Virus record (IMG/VR): IMGVR_UViG_3300022751_000016
Coordinates: 32,001 to 96,000 of that record
DNA length: 64,000 nucleotides
Reading direction: 5' to 3' (one strand)
DNA from: a virus
Of the stretch, positions 30,517 through 41,665 are shown piece after piece; the first letter of the stretch is position 1; each line of letters opens with the position of its first letter. Below the pieces are notes generated by a model. The model did no database searches. It saw only the letters and a program-made list of their open reading frames with translations, and was not told where the DNA came from. A program made the position numbers and the translations under genes.

Positions 30517-31889
30517 CTATGGAAGGTTTTGTAGTTTTGTTTATCTTAGCAATGTTTTTCTTAGGTCTTTTTCTCCCGCAAAATTCAATCACTGATGAGG
30601 AAGTCGCCGCAAACAAAAAAGAATTAGATAAGCTAGAAAATACTTTAAAAAGTGTTGATAATCTATATAAAGAGTGGGATATTTTAACTGAAAAAAGAAA
30701 AATAGCTTTAAAAGAATATAAAGGTGATTGGAGCGATTATAACAATATCAATGAAGAAATAGATTCGATAAAACTTAGAATAAAATGGTTACTAAAATAA
30801 AACTGATGAATGAAATACTAAAACACATAGGACAACCTAGATATGCTATAATAGATGCAGGATTATTTGGAGTTAGAATAGTTTCAGGAATAGTAGTAGG
30901 ATTTAGATTTACAGAAGAAGAACCTATTTATGAAATTGCTTTTGGAAGAGATAAGTGGTGGTCTAGTATAATTACAGACAACACTGATGATATTATTTCA
31001 CATTTGAAATTAGGTAGCTTAGAAAGAATTAAAGAATCTCATAAGCTTTCTATTAAGTATGAAAGTAATGAGGATTATATTAACTATTTGGCGGGAAATA
31101 AAAAATAAAAGTTATGAAAATATTAGAATTAGACGGATATAAATATTCAAGAAAAGAGTTTGAAGGTTACAAGTTTAGAAGTATTTTTAAATTTAGAGTT
31201 AATAATGATTGGAGAGATGACAGTAATTTAAATATATACACAGATAATCCAAACAGAGAAAAAGTTACTAGAGTGATAACTTCAAAAGCAACAGATAAAG
31301 TCATTGAAGTTCTTTTAGAACATTGGACTACAAAAGAACAAGATGATTTAATTGCTCAGTTTATTGAAGAAACATTAAAAGATATTTAATTATGAAAAAC
31401 ACAGATGAAATAATATTTGGAGCAATAATTGTAATTATATTAATATTGATTTATGCTTACTGTGAATATCTTGAACGTAAATATGATTTATTAGAAGAAA
31501 AATGCGAAGATGGAAAAACTCATGACTGGAAATTTGAAAATAATAGTACTGGTAATACAGGCGATTTAGGCTTTGGAATTAAAGGTTTTTGGAATATTGA
31601 CACATATTATTGCACCCACTGTTATAAACGAAAAAGAATTGAAAAATAAATAATCATGCTAAAACTCCTAAAAATAAACAAAAACTTAGAAGCTCAAGTA
31701 ATTGATTTAGAGTTTTCTGATAATCAAAGTGCTACACTTTATAAGTTTGGCAAGGACTGGATTTCAAATACTAGTGAATTAATTACTAAAGAATCTTTAA
31801 GACCTATTAAAGAACAGTTGGTTAAATATGGAGTGGAGGCTGACTTAGATGAATTTATTAATCAGTCTTTTATCGCGTATTTTGAGGAT

Positions 31890-32028
31890 GTCTAACGGTC
31901 TTCGGCTTGCTCGTCGTTGTGGCGAGTGAGAAACAATATTAACAAATAATCAAAAAACTTTAAATTATGCCTAAAAATTCAAACACAGACTCGAAGCCAC
32001 AATGCGTGCAAGCCGATGTTAGCAGTAG
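31890..32028. mobile_element. attC-like imperfect palindromic recombination site
   Basis: GTCTAAC (31890-31896) ... GTTAGCA (32018-32024) enclosing TCGGCTTGC/GCAAGCCGA, TTGTGGC/GCCACAA and CGAGT/ACTCG arms; the upstream gene's stop codon lies inside the TAAC box. Confidence 0.6.
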
Positions 32029-32227
32029 TCTTTTTGTAAATACAGGAACATCAATGAAATTTATAACGCCTTTGGAAATGAGGTGGAAGCCAAAAGAAGA
32101 TATAACAACTTACGAACTAACGAAATGCCTACCTTACTTAATTCGATATAGTTCAGTTATGCCTTATGAAATTGATAAATCTGAAAATCATTTTCGTCAT
32201 TTTGAGATTATAGACCATAATAGGTAA
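31967..32227 (+). CDS. Cassette-borne hypothetical protein
   Basis: ORF starts inside the attC-like site; its body is bracketed by GTTAGCAGTAG (32018) and TTACTGCTAAC (32230-32240). Confidence 0.6.
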   Translation: MPKNSNTDSKPQCVQADVSSSLFVNTGTSMKFITPLEMRWKPKEDITTYELTKCLPYLIRYSSVMPYEIDKSENHFRHFEIIDHNR

Positions 32228-32291
32228 TATTACTGCTAACTATTATTTGTACAAATCATGTGTAAACACTAATAAACTTAATACTTAACAA

Positions 32292-33095
32292 ATGGAAATT
32301 CCTAAGCACCTTGAATTGTATCGGAGAGAATTAGTTTTAAAAAACTACTCTGAAAACACTATAAAAAATTATGTCTCGCAGGTTGATTTATTTTTAAGAT
32401 ATTATAATAAAGCATTTACCGAACCTTCAAAAATAAACGAAGCATCTATTAAAGATTGGCTACTACAGTTTAAAACAAGAAACTCAATGTGTCACAGTAT
32501 CTCGGCTTTAAAATTGTTTTATAAATTAGTAATAAAACAGCCAATGAAATTCAAATACATTGAGTATCCACGTTCTGAAAAGAAATTACCTAAGATTATT
32601 GAAAAAGAATTTTTATTAGAGCAGTTGGATAAAATAATCAATAGTAAACACAAAGCACTTCTTACTTTAACTTATTCTACAGGTATGAGAGTTTCAGAAG
32701 TAATTAATCTTTTGATTTCTGATATAGATAGTAAAAGAATGATTATTACAATTCGACAAAGTAAAGGAAGAAAAGACAGAATAGTTCCTCTTAGTCAAAA
32801 AGTGTTAGAATTACTTCGTGTTTATTTTATGGAATACAAGCCTAAGGAATACTTATTCAATGGGCAGTTTTCTAATCAATATAGTGAAACGAGCTGCAAT
32901 CAATTGGTTAAAAAATATATTGGAAAAGAATATCACATGCACTTACTTCGACATTCAAACGCAACGGCATTGCTAGAGGCAGGAACTGACCTCAGATATA
33001 TTCAAAAACATTTAGGACACAGTTCAAGTAAAACAACTGAAATATATTGTCATGTATCTACTGCAATGTTATCAAAATTAAATCTGCCAATATGA
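32292..33095 (+). CDS. Tyrosine recombinase, integron-integrase/XerD-like
   Basis: N-terminal SAM-like NYSENTIKNY; catalytic R (GMRVSE), K (GRKDRIVP), HxxR (HLLRHSNAT), H (LGHSS), Y (TTEIY). Confidence 0.92.
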   Translation: MEIPKHLELYRRELVLKNYSENTIKNYVSQVDLFLRYYNKAFTEPSKINEASIKDWLLQFKTRNSMCHSISALKLFYKLVIKQPMKFKYIEYPRSEKKLPKIIEKEFLLEQLDKIINSKHKALLTLTYSTGMRVSEVINLLISDIDSKRMIITIRQSKGRKDRIVPLSQKVLELLRVYFMEYKPKEYLFNGQFSNQYSETSCNQLVKKYIGKEYHMHLLRHSNATALLEAGTDLRYIQKHLGHSSSKTTEIYCHVSTAMLSKLNLPI

Positions 33096-33142
33096 ATACT
33101 GTTTTTTCGCGAAATTAGTTAGGAAAATTAAAATTTTCTTTT

Positions 33143-33150
33143 TACATTTG
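33143..33150 (+). promoter_or_regulatory. Promoter -7 box
   Basis: TACATTTG, 17 nt upstream of ATG 33168. Confidence 0.55.
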
Positions 33151-33167
33151 TCAAACAAAAATAAGAT

Positions 33168-35104
33168 ATGAACATTACAGCATCAATTGCCAGTAAAATC
33201 GGCGGGAAAGAAGAAGAAATAATCAATAAAAACACAGAAATTCAGTTTTACGTTAATGATAACATAAATATGTATCAATGGAGAGACAGTAGATTCGATT
33301 GGAGTAGTAATGTATGGGAAAATAAACAATGTCAAACAAGAGAAGAATTAATTGAAGCATTTAAAGAACATTTAAAATCAACAGTATTCACAGTTAAGAA
33401 ATATAAACTATAATTTATGAAAACACATACGATAGATTTAGAAGGATTAAGAGAGTGGCAACAAGAAGAAAAAGTAATTTTTGCAAGTAGTACAAAAGAA
33501 AACAAACAACTTTACTGTACCCTAAGAGGGAGTTATGAAGTTTGGCATGATAAAGAGAAGGTTTTAGAAACAATGCAACCGTTTACAGCAGTTGAAAAAT
33601 ATAATTCAATAGAAAAGAAGTAACATATGAAGTTTTTCAATAAAAAGAAATTAGAACCACAGGAAGAATTGTATTTATCAGTTGTTACAAAGATGGTGAA
33701 TCGAGAAGACTGTACAATCGAAGTGAACCCAGACGACCTTAGTTATTTATTGAGTTTAGAAAAGGAAAAATATTATATTTCTGTTGACAGTGTAGGTATT
33801 CAAATATCAAATCATGATTTTTTAATTTTGAGGAGATTTGAAGAAAATGTTTTAAATGCGGCAAAAAAAGTTATAAAAGAAGAGACTGTAAAACGTCGTG
33901 AGGCTAAAAAAGCAGAAATATTTCAAAATGAAGTTACATTGTTAAATAAGATAAAAGACAGTTTATGAGAGAATTATTCATTCCATATGACGAAGCATTA
34001 GCTTTAAAAGAATTAGGATTTGATGAACCTTGTTTATGCTATTATGAAGATGATAAATTAAGGATATTTGAACAGTCTGAGTATGATGAAATTTTAGCAT
34101 ATCGTGAAAGTGATTGTATTAAAGGTATTGCTAATTGTTTTGTACCACTTTACCAACAAGCTTTTAGATTTTTTAGAGAGAAATATAAATTATTTTCATC
34201 TTTTCATTGCCCCGAATATGATATAGATACTTATGAGTATAGGATTTATAAAATAGATAACTCCGAAATAACATCAAAAGAATTTAAAACTTACGAAGAA
34301 GCAGAATTAGCTTGTCTTAGAAAATTAATATTTAAAATATTTGGAAAATAATGACTTCCCATATTAATAAAATCGCGCAAAAAACAATAGAAGCAACAAA
34401 TTTAAAATGGAATGAAAAAACCAAAGAAATCTTATTAAAGAACAGAGGAAATTATACTTCAACTTTTTCTCTCGCATGCAAGATAAATAATGAGATAGTT
34501 AGAATACTAGAAAGTAAATAATATGGAAAAGGAATTTATATTATGTGCAGCATTAGATTATAATGGGACTATTATTTCGGCAGCAAGACATAAAGACTGT
34601 TATAAAATAATAGAAGAGTTATTTTTAAACCATTCAATGTGCGAAAGAAAAGACCAAGGATTTTTAACTAACACTAACAGATATGTTGACAGAAAAGAAG
34701 CTTGGAAAATCGCGAAAGAAAATAATCAAATAAAATACGGATTAGAAGTATCTGACAGAGGAGAAGACTCTGAACTAATAAGTGAAAATTTATATTAAAT
34801 GAAAAAAAGTAAATATGTAGAGAGTTACTTTATAAACGAATACGAATGTGGAATATTCTGTGTAACTTTTAACTTAACAGAAAGATGGATTGGTTATCAT
34901 GCTTATTGTGAGACTCAATATATTTTTGGTGAAGACGTAGAAGACGAAACTCAAGAAGAGTGGGAATCTAGAATTCAAGATATAGAGACGTTTCTACCTA
35001 AAGAGAAAAGCTATTTACCAACTGTTATTCAGAACAAAGACCAAGTACAATTTTACTACCTTCCTTTTGAATTAATTTCTAGAGATAAAAAAGTTAAGAA
35101 ATGA
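33168..35104 (+). other. Small hypothetical CDSs (33168-33413, 33417-33623, 33627-33968, 34523-34798, 34799-35104)
   Basis: ORF track and packing. Confidence 0.7.
33965..34351 (+). CDS. Hypothetical protein, paralog of 12196-12573
   Basis: 41-nt identical block 33995-34035 = 12226-12266; 22-nt identical block 34289-34310 = 12505-12526. Confidence 0.8.
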   Translation: MRELFIPYDEALALKELGFDEPCLCYYEDDKLRIFEQSEYDEILAYRESDCIKGIANCFVPLYQQAFRFFREKYKLFSSFHCPEYDIDTYEYRIYKIDNSEITSKEFKTYEEAELACLRKLIFKIFGK

Positions 35105-36096
35105 ACCTAAAAACATTAAAGAAATACGAACAAGATGGTCTAATATACAGCCAAGTCCACCCTAACCTACCATTAACAATTTATAACTACACAGACAAGG
35201 TTCAATGGGAAAATATTTGGGATGAAATAACTTTACAGTGTCGTGGACTTGTAGTTGACGGTAAAGGAGATATTGTAGCAAGACCATTCAAAAAGTTCTT
35301 TAATTTATCTGAAGGTAAGACAAATACAACAGACGATTATATTATTTATGAGAAATTAGATGGAAGCTTAGGAATTCTCTTCTGCTATAATGATGAATGG
35401 ATACTAGCTTCTCGCGGCTCTTTTACTTCTGAACAAGCAATTCGCGGAAAAGAAATATTAGACAAAGAGTGTGATTATAATCTGTTAGATAAAGAAAACA
35501 CATATTGTTTTGAAATAATTTACCCTGAAAATAAAATAGTTTTAGAATACAATGGACTAGAAACCTGTATTTTAACGGGAGTGTTTAATACAGCTACAGG
35601 AGAAGAGCAATCTTTAGATGGATGGGGAATGTCGCCAGTTGAGAGTTATAGCTTTAAAACACCTTTAAATGAGCTTCACAGTATTATAGAAGATAATCAA
35701 GAGGGGTATGTAGTTAGGTTTTCAAACGGCGAAAGAGGTAAAATAAAAGGAGCTGAATATTTAAGACTTCATAAGATGATGTCAGAGATGTCAACTACAG
35801 CAGTTTGGGATTGTCTAAGAAATGGTGATAGTATATTAAATTTGATTAAGGATTTTCCAGATGAGTTTTATAATACGGTCAGAGAATATGAACGATTCTT
35901 AAAAGGTGAATTTGATTATAAAGAAGAGTACATACTAATAACTTACGAAAGATTTAAAAATATAGAAGGTACAAAAGAATTTGCCTTAAGAGTTAAGGAG
36001 CACGTATTTAAACACTACTTCTTTTCTCTAAGAAACGGTAAGGATATTAAAGACCAAATTTGGAGAGCCACTAAACCGAAATATGCGCGACTATGA
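35101..36096 (+). CDS. RNA ligase, T4 Rnl1-like
   Basis: CRGLV...ARPFKKFFN, motif I EKLDGSLG, SRGSF, FEII, motif IV EGYVVRF, motif V KIK...Y..LH. Confidence 0.92.
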   Translation: MNLKTLKKYEQDGLIYSQVHPNLPLTIYNYTDKVQWENIWDEITLQCRGLVVDGKGDIVARPFKKFFNLSEGKTNTTDDYIIYEKLDGSLGILFCYNDEWILASRGSFTSEQAIRGKEILDKECDYNLLDKENTYCFEIIYPENKIVLEYNGLETCILTGVFNTATGEEQSLDGWGMSPVESYSFKTPLNELHSIIEDNQEGYVVRFSNGERGKIKGAEYLRLHKMMSEMSTTAVWDCLRNGDSILNLIKDFPDEFYNTVREYERFLKGEFDYKEEYILITYERFKNIEGTKEFALRVKEHVFKHYFFSLRNGKDIKDQIWRATKPKYARL

Positions 36097-36776
36097 ACAT
36101 TAAAATAACAAAAGAACAGCATGATTATCTTTGTGAATACAAATTTAAAGAGTATTTATTTGGTAGTCAATTACACGGTATAGCAACTAAGGATAGTGAT
36201 GAAGACTATATTAGAGTTATCCCTGATACTTTTTATTATAGATTTGATACATTAGCCGTCTATTTACCTAACATCCATTCTTGGCAACATGATTTAAATG
36301 AAAAGATGCAAGTTATTTGGATGACAGAAACTCAATTTTACAGAAATTTGTTTTCAGGTGATGGTAATATGATAGCTGATGTTGTACTATTAAGTGGAGA
36401 ATTTGAAAATCCTTTATTTTTATGTAGAACATACCGCATTATAAAAGGATTTATAGGTGTGGCAAAAAGAGATTTGAAACTTCATGGGAATGACAGAAAG
36501 AAAAAGTTTCATGCAATAAGAAGTATGATGATGGCTGAAAAATTAATGCAAAATATTTTACCTACCATTGAAGACATTCAATTCTATAAACAACATTATG
36601 ACAGTAATCCAGAGCCTTCAAAAGAGCAACTTGAGCACAAGGAACAAGAATTAAGATTTAAGTTGAACGAAATGCTAAATAAAGGAGAAGTATCAATGTA
36701 TCCTAAGTTTAAAGAAGAGAATCCATTGGTTCAAATTATGTGCGATACAAATAATATTACAGAGTTTAAATATTAG
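36093..36776 (+). CDS. Pol-beta-superfamily nucleotidyltransferase
   Basis: FGSQLHGIATKDSDEDY (GS...DxD) and a C-terminal KK..HA.R helix. Confidence 0.75.
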   Translation: MNIKITKEQHDYLCEYKFKEYLFGSQLHGIATKDSDEDYIRVIPDTFYYRFDTLAVYLPNIHSWQHDLNEKMQVIWMTETQFYRNLFSGDGNMIADVVLLSGEFENPLFLCRTYRIIKGFIGVAKRDLKLHGNDRKKKFHAIRSMMMAEKLMQNILPTIEDIQFYKQHYDSNPEPSKEQLEHKEQELRFKLNEMLNKGEVSMYPKFKEENPLVQIMCDTNNITEFKY

Positions 36777-36779
36777 AAT

Positions 36780-37388
36780 ATGAAAGTAAAAATATTAACA
36801 AGTTATCCTAAACAAACATTCAATGTTGATAATGTATTTTTCAGCAGTGATTTACACGAGGGGCACCAAGCAATGATAGATTTTGGACGTAATTTTAATA
36901 GTCTGGATGAAATGAATCTTCATATTGTTGATGAAATTAATAGAAAGGTAGGAGAAAAAGACTTACTTGTTGTGCTTGGTGATACGATGATGAGTGAAAA
37001 AGATTATAACGGATTTTTAAGGAAGTTAAATTGTAATAGTATTATCATGTTATATGGTAATCACTGTTCGCTTTCTAAAATGTTAAGTATAACCTCTGAT
37101 AAGTTATTATATCAAGGATATTATTTAGAACTTAGTGTTGATGGTCAAATTATTTGTTGTCAACACTATCCATCTTTTAATTGGAATTACCAAGACCAAA
37201 ATTCAATTTCTTTGCATGGACATTTACACGCTGATGAAAGTGATGTAGTAAAAGAAATTCATAAATATAAAAGCATGGATGTGGGAATTGATAATTATTA
37301 TAAAATGTTTAGAGAATATAATGTTTTCTCCTTCGCCGAAATAAAAGAAATATTAAAAGATAAATTAATTATAGGAAGACATGGCTAA
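36780..37388 (+). CDS. Calcineurin-like metallophosphoesterase
   Basis: SDLHEGH, LGD, GNH, QHYP, HGHLH, DVGID. Confidence 0.9.
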   Translation: MKVKILTSYPKQTFNVDNVFFSSDLHEGHQAMIDFGRNFNSLDEMNLHIVDEINRKVGEKDLLVVLGDTMMSEKDYNGFLRKLNCNSIIMLYGNHCSLSKMLSITSDKLLYQGYYLELSVDGQIICCQHYPSFNWNYQDQNSISLHGHLHADESDVVKEIHKYKSMDVGIDNYYKMFREYNVFSFAEIKEILKDKLIIGRHG

Positions 37389-37869: not shown

Positions 37870-38637
37870 ATGATATTAGAAAGACCAATAATTTTCTTTG
37901 ATATTGAGTCAACAGGAGTTGAAACAGAGACTGCAAGGATAGTAGAATTAGCTTGTATAAAATACAATCCTGACGGCACAAAAGAAGAGAAAACAATTAA
38001 AGTAAATCCAACTATTCCAATTCCACTTGAAGCAAGTGAGGTTCATGGAATCACAGACGAAGAAGTAAAAGATTTACCTACTTTTAAACAGTATGCTCAA
38101 GCTATTAGAAATTGGTTTGAGGGTTCTGATTTAGCAGGGTTTAATTCAAATAATTATGATGTCCCTCTTCTTTCTGCGGAATTTGAGAGAGCAGGGCTAG
38201 AGGGTATTAATTGGAACCCTACTTTATTTGATGTATTAACTCTTTATAGGGACTTGTTTCCCAATACATTGTCAGCCGTATATGAAAGACTTACAGGAGA
38301 AGAGTTAGAAGGAGCACACGGAGCTGTAGCGGATATATTAGCTACTAAACAGATTGCAGATATAATTTTTCCTTTATTAGTTGAGAAGTCAGAAACTCCA
38401 ATTGAAACGCCTAGAGATGTAGATGAGTATTTGCAGGGTGACAAGAAAAGATTTGACTTAAGTGGTAAGATGTATATAGATGTTGATGGAATTGTAAAAT
38501 GGAATTTTTCTAAGAATAAGGATAAAGCAGTATTAGCTGATGCGGGATTTGTAAATTGGTTTATGCAGCAAGGATTTCCGCAAGAAAGTAAGAATAAGAT
38601 AAAAGAATTACAAAATAATAATAAAAAAGAATCGTAG
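37870..38637 (+). CDS. DEDDh 3'-5' exonuclease (DNA pol III epsilon-like)
   Basis: FFDIESTG, VHGITD, GFN...YDVPLL, AHGAVADI. Confidence 0.92.
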   Translation: MILERPIIFFDIESTGVETETARIVELACIKYNPDGTKEEKTIKVNPTIPIPLEASEVHGITDEEVKDLPTFKQYAQAIRNWFEGSDLAGFNSNNYDVPLLSAEFERAGLEGINWNPTLFDVLTLYRDLFPNTLSAVYERLTGEELEGAHGAVADILATKQIADIIFPLLVEKSETPIETPRDVDEYLQGDKKRFDLSGKMYIDVDGIVKWNFSKNKDKAVLADAGFVNWFMQQGFPQESKNKIKELQNNNKKES

Positions 38638-38639
38638 CT

Positions 38640-39584
38640 ATGAACAATATATACTGGAAGTTACAATCTGTAAATCAAACAGATGAATTAGAAATAGAAT
38701 CCAAAGAATACAACCTTTATAGAGAACACTATAAAAAGGATTATGCAACTAGAGAACTAATGTCAATGCAAGAAACTGTAGAACATTACAGAATTAATGC
38801 TTTTAAAAATCCACTATTCTCACGTATATTTTCTCTAACAGTCGCTATTGTAGAAGATGAAATAGTTAAAGTAATATATTACACTGGAAACGAAAAGGAC
38901 TTGATTCAAACATTCTTAAATACACTTAAAAAAGACCGTTTTAAAGACTTTACTGTCACTCACTTTGGTGCAGAGTATGTCCTGCCATATTTAGGCACTA
39001 GAATGGATAAAAATGGTGTTAAAACAACAATTCCTAGTGGACTTCAATATAAGGGATTGCGACCTTGGAACTTGCAAGGATTTTGTGTAAGAGATTATTA
39101 TTCAGGTGCAGGAAATTACAAAAACAATTTAAAAGAATTAGCTTGGATTTATGGACTAGATTCAAATTTTATTGAACCTGTAGATGAATTCACTTATTAT
39201 AAGTCAGGACAATTACAAGAACTTAAAGATTCAGCAGTTGATGAAATATACACTTTGGTGAATGTTCATAGGTCAATGGTGGGCGAAAATATAATTGAAG
39301 AATTTACATGTAATGAATTCTTAGTTGAAAATGTAGAAGAAGTTAAACCTGTGAATTTTCTATCCTTATTGTGGGAATGTCAAGCAATGACTCTAGAAAT
39401 CCGCGCAGGACTAGAAAAACAGTTAAAAAAGAAAAAATTAACTAAGAGAGATAGGGAAATTGTAAGAGAAATTATCTTAGGAGTCTATATTCAAAATGAT
39501 TTCATAAACGGAGCTCAGGATTCAAAAGCTACAATCGAGAAAAAAACAAAAGAAGTGGATAATTTTTTAGCAATAATAAAATAA
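38640..39584 (+). CDS. Degenerate PolB-type 3'-5' exonuclease-like protein
   Basis: P.FSRI.....E.DLI..F......RM..NG....L...G..PW; the usual acidic catalytic motifs appear lost. Confidence 0.45.
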   Translation: MNNIYWKLQSVNQTDELEIESKEYNLYREHYKKDYATRELMSMQETVEHYRINAFKNPLFSRIFSLTVAIVEDEIVKVIYYTGNEKDLIQTFLNTLKKDRFKDFTVTHFGAEYVLPYLGTRMDKNGVKTTIPSGLQYKGLRPWNLQGFCVRDYYSGAGNYKNNLKELAWIYGLDSNFIEPVDEFTYYKSGQLQELKDSAVDEIYTLVNVHRSMVGENIIEEFTCNEFLVENVEEVKPVNFLSLLWECQAMTLEIRAGLEKQLKKKKLTKRDREIVREIILGVYIQNDFINGAQDSKATIEKKTKEVDNFLAIIK

Positions 39585-39585
39585 T

Positions 39586-40299
39586 ATGTCAAAATCAAAA
39601 ATAAACTTACCCTCAAAATTAGATAAAAGCAATTGGTTCTATGAAGGAAATGAAGAGTTAATAAATCCACATTTAAATAAATTTTACATATCTTATTCCA
39701 CTGTTTCATCTTGGGAAGACTATAGAACAGATTTCATTAAACAGAAGTTAGCAGGGATTAAATTACCAGATTCTATTTATGGCTCGTTCGGGACATGGGT
39801 GGGGACTAGCTTAGAGCACGGGCAAATTCAAAGTAATAATTATGGATTCACTGGAGGAGAGAATATCAGCTTAATTGAACGTAAAGAAAATGCTCAATAT
39901 GAAAGAATGATTCTTATTGACATGGGAGAATGGTGTATCATAGGATTTATTGACGTATTTGAAGAAATCGCACCAAAAGTTGTAAATTGCAAGGATTTGA
40001 AGACAGGAGGAGCAGGGAAAGAGTCAGGCTATACTAAGAAAGAATATATTCAATTAGTTTTATATGCATATGCCTTAGTGTTAGAAGGATACAGTATAAA
40101 TGAAATTGGAGTTTGGTTTTGTAGAAGAACAGGAAGTCATATTAAACCACCCTTACACTTATCTACAGAACAGTTTTACATACCTTTAGAATACAATGAT
40201 GAAAGAGTTAAATACGCAATAGATAAAGTAACTAGAGTGGTTGGAGAAATTAGTGAGTTTTTCACTTGTTTTGAGAAATATTTCGCGGAAAAGAAATAA
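39586..40299 (+). CDS. PD-(D/E)XK nuclease (RecB/Cas4-like exonuclease)
   Basis: ISYSTV, FGT.V, GFIDV...DLKTG, QL.LYA. Confidence 0.8.
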   Translation: MSKSKINLPSKLDKSNWFYEGNEELINPHLNKFYISYSTVSSWEDYRTDFIKQKLAGIKLPDSIYGSFGTWVGTSLEHGQIQSNNYGFTGGENISLIERKENAQYERMILIDMGEWCIIGFIDVFEEIAPKVVNCKDLKTGGAGKESGYTKKEYIQLVLYAYALVLEGYSINEIGVWFCRRTGSHIKPPLHLSTEQFYIPLEYNDERVKYAIDKVTRVVGEISEFFTCFEKYFAEKK

Positions 40300-40434
40300 A
40301 AACAGAAAAAATGAAAGGAATTAAAATAACATACACAACAGATAGAGACTCTTGGACAGATGATGATAAGATTAAAACCTAAGATAGATTATCAAGAGGA
40401 AACACGTAACTGGCGGTGGTTTAATGTAGTTACT

Positions 40435-40466
40435 AAAGGAGAGGCGTAAAAAGTCTCTCTTTTTTG
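40435..40466 (+). terminator. Rho-independent terminator
   Basis: GAGAGGC...GTCTCTC plus T-tract; the next promoter box TATATTTG is at 40500-40507. Confidence 0.7.
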
Positions 40467-40533
40467 TTTAAAATATTTTTTTATTCGGAAAATTATACTT
40501 ATATTTGTCAAATAAATATTAAAACTAAAAATT

Positions 40534-41665
40534 ATGATATCATTATTCAAAAAACAAAAATCGGAAAAAGAAATTATAGAAGAAATTCATAATGAGTTCG
40601 ATACAGCACCTGACAGAATACTACAACAGGCTTTAAGAATTATTGAAGAGCAAACAAATGCTAAGATTGTTTTAGAAAGCGGTATAGAAAATAAAGCCGA
40701 AAGATTAAAGAAAATAGGTTTCATTAAGAATGGATTAGTTGCTAAAAAAGTAGAAATTGCAGAAAGAAATACAGCTAAAGATGAAGTGATTAATCTCACA
40801 AATAAAGAAGCTGAACTAGTTAAGTATTATAAAGATAATTATCCTTTCATTAAAACATTACCTATTTCTGAGTTAGATAGAATATGCGATAAATACGGAT
40901 TAATTTATGCTCCTGTACAAAATTATAAAATGCCAGTACCAGATAAAAACTTAGTAGAGATTGAAGATTCTCAAAGCTTAAAAAACTATGACAATTACGA
41001 AGGAGAAACTATACTAAGAGTCCCTCAAAATCAACAATGGAGGCATGATTTTCCTAGTGGTTTAGGTAGTATTTTGCACAAAGGTTTTGTCGTACCTAAT
41101 TCAGAAGTAGACACAAATTTTATAAGTGATGAGAGGATATTAACTCTAGCTAAAAAGTATGGAAATTATACAGGAAGTTATACAGGGTATCTTACCAAAC
41201 CCTACGGAGATGCCGAGATAAGTAAATTTAATAAAGAAGGTTTATTTATAGCTGCTCCTAAAAAACATTTTGATTTAAGTGGCTTAGAACATGATAAAAA
41301 GAGAGGATTTTTCACAATTACAAAAACAGTTGTTAAGTCTGACCCAATTGTATTCAGATACGTTAAGGGAAACATGGTTCAAGTTTTAACTAAATGGGGA
41401 TTAGAAGCAAACGATCCAGCGCTAGTCATAGAAATTTTAAATTAAATATATGAAAACAACATATAAAGTAATAGAAAATCCACCATACGACAGAGGTGCT
41501 CCAAGTACATTCTGGATTAGAAAAGAAACAGTGAGATTTGGAATATTTAAGTCTTATGAGACTATTGGTGATTATAAGTATGATGACACTTATGGAGAGC
41601 TTGGAGATTGTCCTTTCTTTAGTAGAACGGCGGCGAATAAAAGAGTGAAATTACTAAAACAATAA
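40534..41665 (+). other. Hypothetical CDSs (40534-41445, 41450-41665)
   Basis: ORF track. Confidence 0.75.

Follow-up and report, generated by a model that had tools for sequence, protein, structure and literature searches.

A hairpin site, a single gene cassette and a short Xer-like recombinase in a phage genome: a probable member of an integron-like gene-capture platform of Bacteroidota phages

Can a phage capture genes in the manner of an integron with a recombinase that resembles an ordinary Xer protein? The question is raised by a locus in a 64,000-nt stretch of viral DNA (hereafter, the window), which comprises bases 32001-96000 of a 142,450-bp IMG/VR virus record (IMGVR_UViG_3300022751_000016) rated as 100% complete by CheckV. 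The genome has a G+C content of ~31%, the large open reading frames (ORFs) in the window are all on the + strand, and phage genes flank the locus on both sides. An earlier reading of the letters alone (the original prediction) had proposed a phage-borne integron-like unit, consisting of an attC-like site, one gene cassette and an IntI-like tyrosine recombinase. Based on comparisons with 80 viral-contig loci, whose recombinases are 47-91% identical to that of the window, and with related arrays in bacterial chromosomes, we consider it highly probable that the locus belongs to an integron-like platform for gene capture in Bacteroidota phages, of which it would be a minimal example with one cassette. 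Three ORFs make up the locus, together with the following sites (positions are those of the window).

31656..31895, + strand: backbone ORF of 79 aa, no known family; its TAA stop forms the first three bases of a TAAC core
31893..32021, + strand: attC-like hairpin site of 129 nt (TAACG...TGTTA), identified by DNA folding and by a covariance model match
31897..32240, + strand: single gene cassette (putative mobile unit), made up of the hairpin site, the ORF and the right-end repeat, with TAAC as its last bases
31967..32227, + strand: ORF of the cassette, 86 aa; it starts at an ATG in the hairpin loop and takes roughly its first 18 codons from the right arm
32018..32032, + strand: GTTAGCAGTAGTCTT, repeat at the left end of the cassette, of the form GTTA N6 G T (N, variable)
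32226..32240, + strand: AATATTACTGCTAAC, repeat at the right end of the cassette and inverted complement of the left one
32237..32291, + strand: attI-like site; TAAC plus a conserved 51 nt, TATTATTTGTACAAATCATGTGTAAACACTAATAAACTTAATACTTAACAA, up to the recombinase ATG
32292..33095, + strand: short Xer-like tyrosine recombinase of 267 aa, with a SAM-like core-binding domain and a catalytic domain

The hairpin site and its family

The palindrome extends from GTCTAAC at 31890 to GTTAGCA ending at 32024, with the ends that the original prediction had given it, and the stop codon of the upstream ORF falls inside the TAAC box as claimed. It is the sole strong TAAC...GTTA palindrome in the 142-kb genome, with a duplex energy of -39.7 kcal/mol compared to -16.9 for the runner-up; by count alone, TAAC...GTTA pairs passing a cut-off of -12 kcal/mol number 8 in the real genome and 15-25 in shuffled genomes. 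A closing helix of 5 bp (TAACG, 31893-97, paired with TGTTA, 32017-21) is followed by a 4-nt bulge on the 5' arm only (GTCT, 31898-901) and by an interrupted stem of ~22 bp, in which, for example, TCGGCTTGCTCG (31902-13) pairs with CGTGCAAGCCGA (32005-16). The AT-rich loop contains the ATG of the cassette ORF. When folded as single-stranded DNA, the + strand reaches -22.9 kcal/mol (z = -3.3 relative to shuffled sequences) and the - strand -17.7 kcal/mol (z = -1.5). The 79-aa upstream ORF had no relatives in the viral contigs searched.

A covariance model (R1) was trained on the sites of 59 relatives, with the window left out. In the window it scored the hairpin at 72.6 bits (E = 7e-13, + strand), with the second-best match at 17.6 bits; the site is recovered only with the search filters off and is missed with default filters. 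Because a model built from relatives alone gives this score, the window site is a genuine member of the hairpin family, and its anatomy agrees with that of the other members. In these, the fifth pair of a 5-bp TAACG/TGTTA closing helix is always G.T; the 5' arm alone then bulges, by 3-4 nt, and the stem of ~20 bp that follows is interrupted once and leads to a variable, AT-rich loop. The one-sided bulge directly after the closing helix was present in 109 of 186 sites; deeper in the stem there is a 1x1 mismatch or a 1-nt bulge, and two positions are invariant G.T. Pairing in the family is supported by covariation: RNAalifold, applied to the 59 sites, returned 24 consensus pairs, 19 of them with compensatory changes, and in a fixed-register test that involves no folding, at least 8 of 9 positions were paired in 76% of true arm pairs compared to 7.8% of arms taken from different sites.

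The window site has the hallmarks by which attC sites are recognized, namely an imperfect hairpin in the range of ~57-141 nt, an inverse core ending in AAC, a core beginning with GTT, and conservation of structure over sequence. The marks of asymmetry in the family (the bulge, the mismatch or 1-nt bulge, and the two invariant G.T positions) differ from the G/T pair of extrahelical bases that, along with an unpaired central spacer, marks the recombined strand of classical sites. The locus does not fit the definition of a cluster of attC sites lacking an integron integrase (CALIN; at least two attC sites, no integrase): both the window and the genome contain a single site, and the recombinase gene is 271 nt away.

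In the relatives, rows of AAC...GTT hairpins lie to the left of the TAAC that precedes the recombinase gene, with up to ~15 hairpins per 5 kb, spacings of 200-600 nt, and two size classes (~80-90 nt and 120-135 nt). Of the hairpins counted across the 80 viral loci, 166 precede the recombinase gene (0.58 per kb) and 3 follow it (0.008 per kb), and a hairpin occurred within 1.5 kb upstream in 47 of 59 loci. As the original prediction had asked to see, the cassettes that accompany this recombinase between cores of one kind differ from relative to relative and are frequently numerous.

Neighbouring hairpins are related by a bracket rule. Of 138 adjacent pairs, 60 show complementarity at ≥9 positions between the 12 nt that follow the GTT of one hairpin and the 12 nt that precede the AAC of the next; among random pairs the count is 32 of 5000, and the two flanks of one and the same hairpin scored as random. 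The repeat that brackets each ORF is 15 nt long (GTTA N6 G T N3 on one side, N3 A T N6 TAAC on the other), and its position 11 is a T.G pair in 52 of 61 cases. The window cassette follows the rule, T.G included: its end repeats form 13 Watson-Crick pairs and one T.G, with one mismatch, over 15 positions. The inverted cores that had been noted around the small ORF are therefore real and longer than claimed. If cassettes had earlier been circular, with a longer hairpin that was cut inside TAAC/GTTA, each ORF would be expected to lie within an inverted repeat unique to it, as observed. We also considered a shufflon or invertible segment bounded by the repeats at 32018 and 32240, and rejected it; the - strand of the segment has no ORF, and the repeats obey the family-wide rule.

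Of 232 sites, 202 fold better as the + strand (Wilcoxon p = 3e-31), which also contains more G.T pairs (471 versus 203). This bias could have another origin: the hairpins may be RNA elements of a polycistronic transcript (RNase III sites, stabilizers or translational control devices), with the recombinase unrelated to them. The phage data lend this idea some support, given that the better-folding strand is the mRNA strand, that the cassette ORF lies on that strand in 131 of 132 cases with its ATG inside the hairpin in 39 of 129, and that the window ORF itself starts in the loop. Relatives in bacteria provide a comparison in which strand and message are uncoupled. R1 finds rows of hairpins, scoring up to 97 bits, beside short recombinases 41-45% identical to that of the window in chromosomes of Bacteroidota, including Arundinibacter roseus, Flavobacterium sp., F. 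psychrophilum DSM 3660, Aequorivita and Bacteroidales metagenome-assembled genomes. Seven such loci were examined; arrays are located as follows.

Bacterial arrays: L150:8659-12270, L151:7183-9085, L139:7821-11221, L172:8532-12399, L174:7450-8024, L112:1618-4089

In these arrays the bracket rule holds and the ORFs are antisense to the favoured hairpin strand, which is the classical orientation of cassette ORFs, so that the strand bias is a property of the DNA site and not an effect of the mRNA. As in classical integrons, it is the bottom strand that is favoured when the array is read from attI outward. An RNA function would, moreover, leave unexplained the unique 15-nt inverted repeats and the 70-fold enrichment of hairpins upstream of the gene, as well as an attI-like junction at TAAC and the insertion of a single unit between otherwise identical phages (both described below). 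The locus matches no Rfam family and has no terminator-like site; the scan that returned the latter result also returned sigma-70 promoter-like matches at chance level, although it does not model Bacteroidota promoters. Taken together, these observations make an origin of the hairpins as RNA elements quite unlikely. Orientation of the recombinase gene varies among the bacterial arrays, being divergent in L112, as in classical integrons, and co-directional in the others.

Cassettes, their boundaries and their reading frames

The limits assigned to the window cassette were taken from relatives that differ by defined units (L022 and L044; the phages Freya_1, Freya_9 and Freya_10), as homologous cassette pairs are too few (3 among 129 cassettes) to settle the mobile unit. 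A 1027-nt cassette, 93% identical between the two loci, is located four cassettes away from the recombinase gene in L022 and directly at attI in L044, and the homology ends at TAAC on both sides. Freya_9 and Freya_10, two cultured Polaribacter phages, are 100% identical over 3793 and 903 nt around one extra unit in Freya_10; this unit, of ~304 nt, consists of a hairpin and an 81-aa ORF and is inserted at ...CCAAC followed by ACCCCTATAAC, just upstream of the integrase gene. Freya_1 lacks the entire 4.9-kb array at the same point, and other Freya isolates contain subsets of it.

Exchange of this kind might need no dedicated enzyme, if repeated hairpins were shuffled by homologous or illegitimate recombination in the manner of the T4-type promoter-stem-loop 'mobile regulatory cassettes'. 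In keeping with such shuffling, hairpins that are ~90% identical occur beside different ORFs, and mosaicism is evident on both sides of the recombinase gene. However, attI and the hairpins have only TAAC in common, and yet the junctions fall exactly there; the arms of hairpins within one array are mostly unrelated in sequence; and a bracket rule that keeps T.G at one position suggests that cleavage takes place at a fixed site. We regard homologous shuffling as very unlikely. Separately, the Polaribacter phages Danklef_1-5, from another host strain (MT732458-62, ~38012-40580), share with Freya_10 38% of its cassette block (97% identity), at a different genome position, which suggests an exchange of cassettes between distinct phage lineages.

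The 129 ORFs of phage cassettes have a median length of 97 aa, and few have a Pfam match. Recognizable cargo includes DNA methyltransferases (N6_N4 in four cassettes, D12 in one), Mom, YopX, thymidylate synthase (ThyA), an ART-PolyVal ADP-ribosyltransferase, GNAT acetyltransferases and a dual-specificity phosphatase, the remainder being mostly proteins without assignment; the cargo is thus made up of phage-type accessory genes. The ORF of the window cassette had no Pfam, NCBIfam or PHROG match, and a protein atlas was uninformative. In 131 of 132 phage cassettes the ORF lies on the folding strand and points toward attI and the recombinase, the reverse of the classical arrangement, in which cassette ORFs point away from attI, are served by a promoter of the platform and lie opposite the folded strand.

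The site provides stop codons as well as starts. Start codons lie inside the hairpin in 39 of 129 cassettes, and stops recur at two fixed spots of the right-end repeat, either as the TAA of TAAC (23 of 129) or as a TAG 12 nt upstream, in a ..TAGTATT.. motif (21 of 129; L002-L081). The window ORF begins in the hairpin loop and has a second, internal ATG at 32051. A counterpart, in L082, is a homologous hairpin and ORF (74% aa identity) with the same loop ATG and end repeats and a conserved leader, in another context. Three further loci (L089, L092 and L093) contain hairpins ~90% identical to that of the window. Their loop ATG and their leader of 18 codons (MPKNSNTD.KPQCVQ.DV) agree with those of the window, and the leader is in-frame with two other ORF bodies, or three bodies when that of the window is counted; sequences diverge at or soon after GTTA. 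These comparisons support the proposal, made in the original prediction, that the att site supplies the start codon, together with a short leader. Two accounts of the shared hairpins can be offered: hairpin families may be homogeneous, like the Vibrio repeats, or exchange may also occur at the GTTA end.

The near-identical hairpins are located at L089:2076-2202, L092:2712-2838 and L093:2929-3054 (window, 31893-32021). A further copy, at L094:2891-3060, is decayed: the loop, ATG and right arm are kept, and the left arm and GTTA core are gone. It looks like a fossil cassette boundary.

One distant relative of the window phage shares its surroundings as well as its layout. RNA ligase and its neighbours, which lie downstream of the recombinase gene (window 35101-37388; L183:7001-9290), are conserved at ~50-70% aa identity in one other viral contig of the collection only, and a search with the RNA ligase yielded that single syntenic relative, G001. 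This 88-kb contig carries two homologous short recombinases (L184 and L185; C1:41306-42118 and 65028-65786). G001, which has the RNA-repair cluster in common with the window phage, also has its layout of one hairpin and one cassette, with a different cassette; one of its recombinases is accompanied by this single cassette, the other by an array of at least four hairpins.

The recombinase and the attI-like site

By Pfam, the 267-aa protein consists of a SAM-like core-binding domain and a Phage_integrase catalytic domain, with no arm-binding domain. By sequence the catalytic set is complete, and nine relatives, the most distant of them 46% identical, all retain R133, K158, H217, R220, H243 and Y252. 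The gene is the sole PF00589 member of the genome. More than 7000 proteins match it at E ≤ 1e-30, and those that have names are called XerD. Among cultured phages the best homologues, in Polaribacter and Cellulophaga phages, are 35% identical and none is close; a blastn search of the cultured-phage collection with positions 31000-34000 gave no match.

Comparison with IntI and Xer families, which the original prediction had called for, places the protein nearer to the latter. NCBIfam models score it at 178.2 bits for XerA (cut-off 220), 159.8 for XerC (335) and 157.4 for XerD (330), all below the cut-off, whereas the integron-integrase model TIGR02249 matches in two pieces totalling 143.5 bits (cut-off 265) and PRK15417 reaches 89.8 bits (cut-off 435). 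The best structural matches are to archaeal XerA (PDB 4a8e, 105 bits; 5hxy, 103 bits), end-to-end and co-linear. Alignment to Vibrio IntI4 (2a3v) is split between query 14-176 with chain 13-178 and query 210-257 with chain 260-307, so that the phage protein has 33 residues where IntI4 has 81. This gap indicates that the IntI-specific insertion, an extra domain (I2 helix region) that separates the beta-hairpin from the HxxR box and defines the IntI family, is absent, as had been suspected. Structural and genetic work on IntI links the insertion to recognition of folded attC (PDB 2a3v; PMC7790495). Absence of the insertion, asymmetric arms and an ORF that starts in the site had been listed as non-canonical traits; they are indeed present, but as the norm of a large family and not as oddities of this copy.

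Two assignments to known classes were rejected. The protein does not qualify as a XerC/XerD/XerA dimer resolvase, as it falls below the family cut-offs and is found in a phage cassette-array context, though a dif-like site was not systematically sought; nor does it qualify as a lambda Int-type heterobivalent integrase, since its 267 aa hold the core-binding and catalytic domains only and are co-linear with XerA.

Upstream of the gene, the ATG at 32292 follows the core TAAC by 51 nt, as the original prediction had it, and the family mode is 51-52 nt (AAC-to-ATG distance, 32 of 46 relatives stacked). Approximately 52 nt between TAAC and ATG are conserved in the relatives, as TAAC followed by TAYTATATGTAAAAA..ATCTGTAAACACYAATAAA.TTAAYACYTAAG..ATG, and in the window this interval contains two TGTA(A/C)A(A/C)AC-like direct repeats. 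Conservation stops exactly at TAAC, to the left of which the sequence varies from locus to locus; the neighbourhood is thus far from the invariant one that would have spoken against cassette turnover. An attI site lies next to the integrase gene and takes up insertions between G and TT. The conserved 51-52 nt and the differences between Freya_9 and Freya_10 and between L044 and L022 provide the comparative evidence that this site behaves as one. They also require the minus-strand reading of the original prediction, in the order intI, attI-like GTT, cassette and attC, both for the mobile unit and for a crossover in TAAC.

The same features might instead mark an ordinary integration or dimer-resolution enzyme that acts on attP/attB or on a lox- or dif-like site, in which case the palindrome and cores would be fortuitous or belong to attP. 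Integration of phages at dif is within the capacity of Xer-type enzymes, the gene encodes the only tyrosine recombinase of the genome, a conserved site lies directly upstream of it, and its close relatives are named XerD in the source databases. Nevertheless, the protein lacks an arm-binding domain, and what is conserved amounts to half a site, the left half changing cassette by cassette. Hairpin arrays are tied to the gene across the 80 loci, and the site has no tRNA or host-like sequence and sits between phage genes in a CheckV-complete genome (ARAGORN, and Rfam at gathering or E-value thresholds, found no tRNA or other RNA gene at the locus that could serve as an att core). We give such an enzyme a small chance of being the whole explanation, while the recombinase may have an integration or resolution function in addition to the one proposed here.

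Downstream of the recombinase, the following gene (MSQLKKLQ...) is shared by L002, L006 and L013; in L007 (5804-5860) the similarity ends after 25 nt and gives way to unrelated sequence. A recurrent breakpoint thus seems to lie on the 3' side of the recombinase gene as well.

A proposed mechanism and its relation to known systems

In the mechanism we propose, the recombinase would join folded hairpin sites (TAACG, bulge, stem, loop, stem, TGTTA) to the attI-like site, with a crossover inside TAAC of the + strand, probably between TAA and C (between G and TTA on the - strand), the exact base not being fixed. A cassette would consist of one hairpin site and the ORF after it. In the circular form the 15-nt end repeats would lengthen the hairpin stem, and an inserted ORF would consequently be bracketed by its own unique inverted repeat. 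New cassettes would enter beside the recombinase gene, and the + strand would be the one selected for folding, so that recombinase, attI and attC would have the geometry of classical integrons; the phage cassette ORFs would be inverted, pointing toward attI and co-directional with the phage genes. The comparisons suggest that it is this recombinase that carries out the reaction. It would be the catalyst, single-stranded DNA would be its substrate, and the window cassette would be mobile at present.

Several observations weigh against this interpretation. The recombinase lacks the very insertion that is tied to recognition of folded attC, and where classical sites have two extrahelical bases the hairpins have a 3-4-nt bulge. 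The strand favoured for folding doubles as the mRNA strand in phages, and the loops of 39 of 129 cassettes hold an ATG, so that the phage copies could have an added RNA role. No recombination event was seen for the window genome, which has a single cassette; close relatives that combine its backbone with an unoccupied site were not found either, and in the cleanest natural experiment, provided by the Freya phages, the recombinase shares just 35% identity with that of the window. Nearly identical hairpins on different ORF bodies demand either de novo genesis of cassettes or exchange at the GTTA end; a simple model with one crossover does not account for them. Finally, the flank downstream of the recombinase gene also varies between relatives, and the whole module may be mobile or the phages may be highly mosaic.

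Balancing these points against the evidence above, we lean toward a broader proposal, which we hold with less assurance than the assignment of the locus itself: that Bacteroidota and their phages harbour a second integron lineage, in which a short Xer-like recombinase would move cassettes with folded single-stranded hairpins, with ORFs inverted in the phages and starts supplied by the site, trading accessory and anti-defence genes. Of the original prediction's picture of cassette capture by an apparently lytic phage, capture is supported by the comparisons; a lytic lifestyle is not established for a genome with one tyrosine recombinase.

If the proposal is true, the IntI insertion is no prerequisite for integron-type capture, and integron-like systems are far commoner than IntI-based surveys show; a working platform built on a plain Xer-like recombinase would alter the definition of integrons, their detection and the view of their evolution. 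IntegronFinder surveys report almost no complete integrons in Bacteroidetes, a gap for which the platform could account (PMC9024848), and it would give a mechanism for the attC clusters of virulent phages (PMC9892861). Site-specific swapping of small accessory genes between otherwise identical phages also bears on the evolution of host range and counter-defence. Cultured Polaribacter phages that differ by single cassettes make the platform directly testable. Full-text searches returned no description of it, most subscription journals being outside their coverage.

How does the platform compare to systems already known? With XerA, XerC and XerD it shares the best sequence matches and the same two-domain architecture; unlike them, its recombinase falls below the curated cut-offs (220 to 335 bits) and occurs in a cassette-array context and not at the chromosome terminus. 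At attP of CTX-phi, XerC/D act on a hairpin folded from one strand. In Acinetobacter plasmids, pdif modules bounded by inverted sites move in an Xer-dependent manner (PMC7399989). Both systems resemble the platform in their simple Xer-type recombinases without an IntI insertion and in their hairpin or inverted-site substrates. They differ in using host XerC/D and 28-bp dif-like sites, whereas the platform has an element-encoded enzyme and 80-135-nt TAAC/GTTA hairpins arrayed at one attI-like site.

Closer in setting are the CALINs that Qi et al. (2023; PMC9892861) described in virulent phages, including Polaribacter phage P12002L, and whose sites bacterial IntI1 recombines. Those sites were found with an IntI-trained model, the arrays were taken to be fragments of bacterial integrons, and no phage recombinase was proposed. 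Attributes common to the two include attC-like hairpin arrays in (flavobacterial) phages and methyltransferase cargo, P12002L being compared by its description; the arrays examined here, in contrast, end at a dedicated short recombinase gene with its own attI-like site.

The fullest resemblance is to classical integrons (IntI1, IntI4). In both, the recombinase gene abuts a conserved attI-like site, and small ORFs that look promoterless are arrayed between imperfect hairpins of 80-135 nt with AAC/GTT cores. Crossover falls between G and TT, the start of a cassette is complementary to its own inverse core, one strand is favoured for folding, entry takes place next to attI, and hairpin families can be homogeneous across ORFs, as the Vibrio repeats are. 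Unlike classical integrons, the platform is phage-borne and has a recombinase without the IntI insertion (143.5 bits against a cut-off of 265), a one-sided 3-4-nt bulge with invariant G.T pairs, and end complementarity of 15 nt, and its ORFs, encoded on the folding strand, point toward attI and can begin within the site. The platform thus works like an integron, and departs from one in two of the properties by which integrons are defined, the IntI insertion and the orientation of the cassette ORFs.

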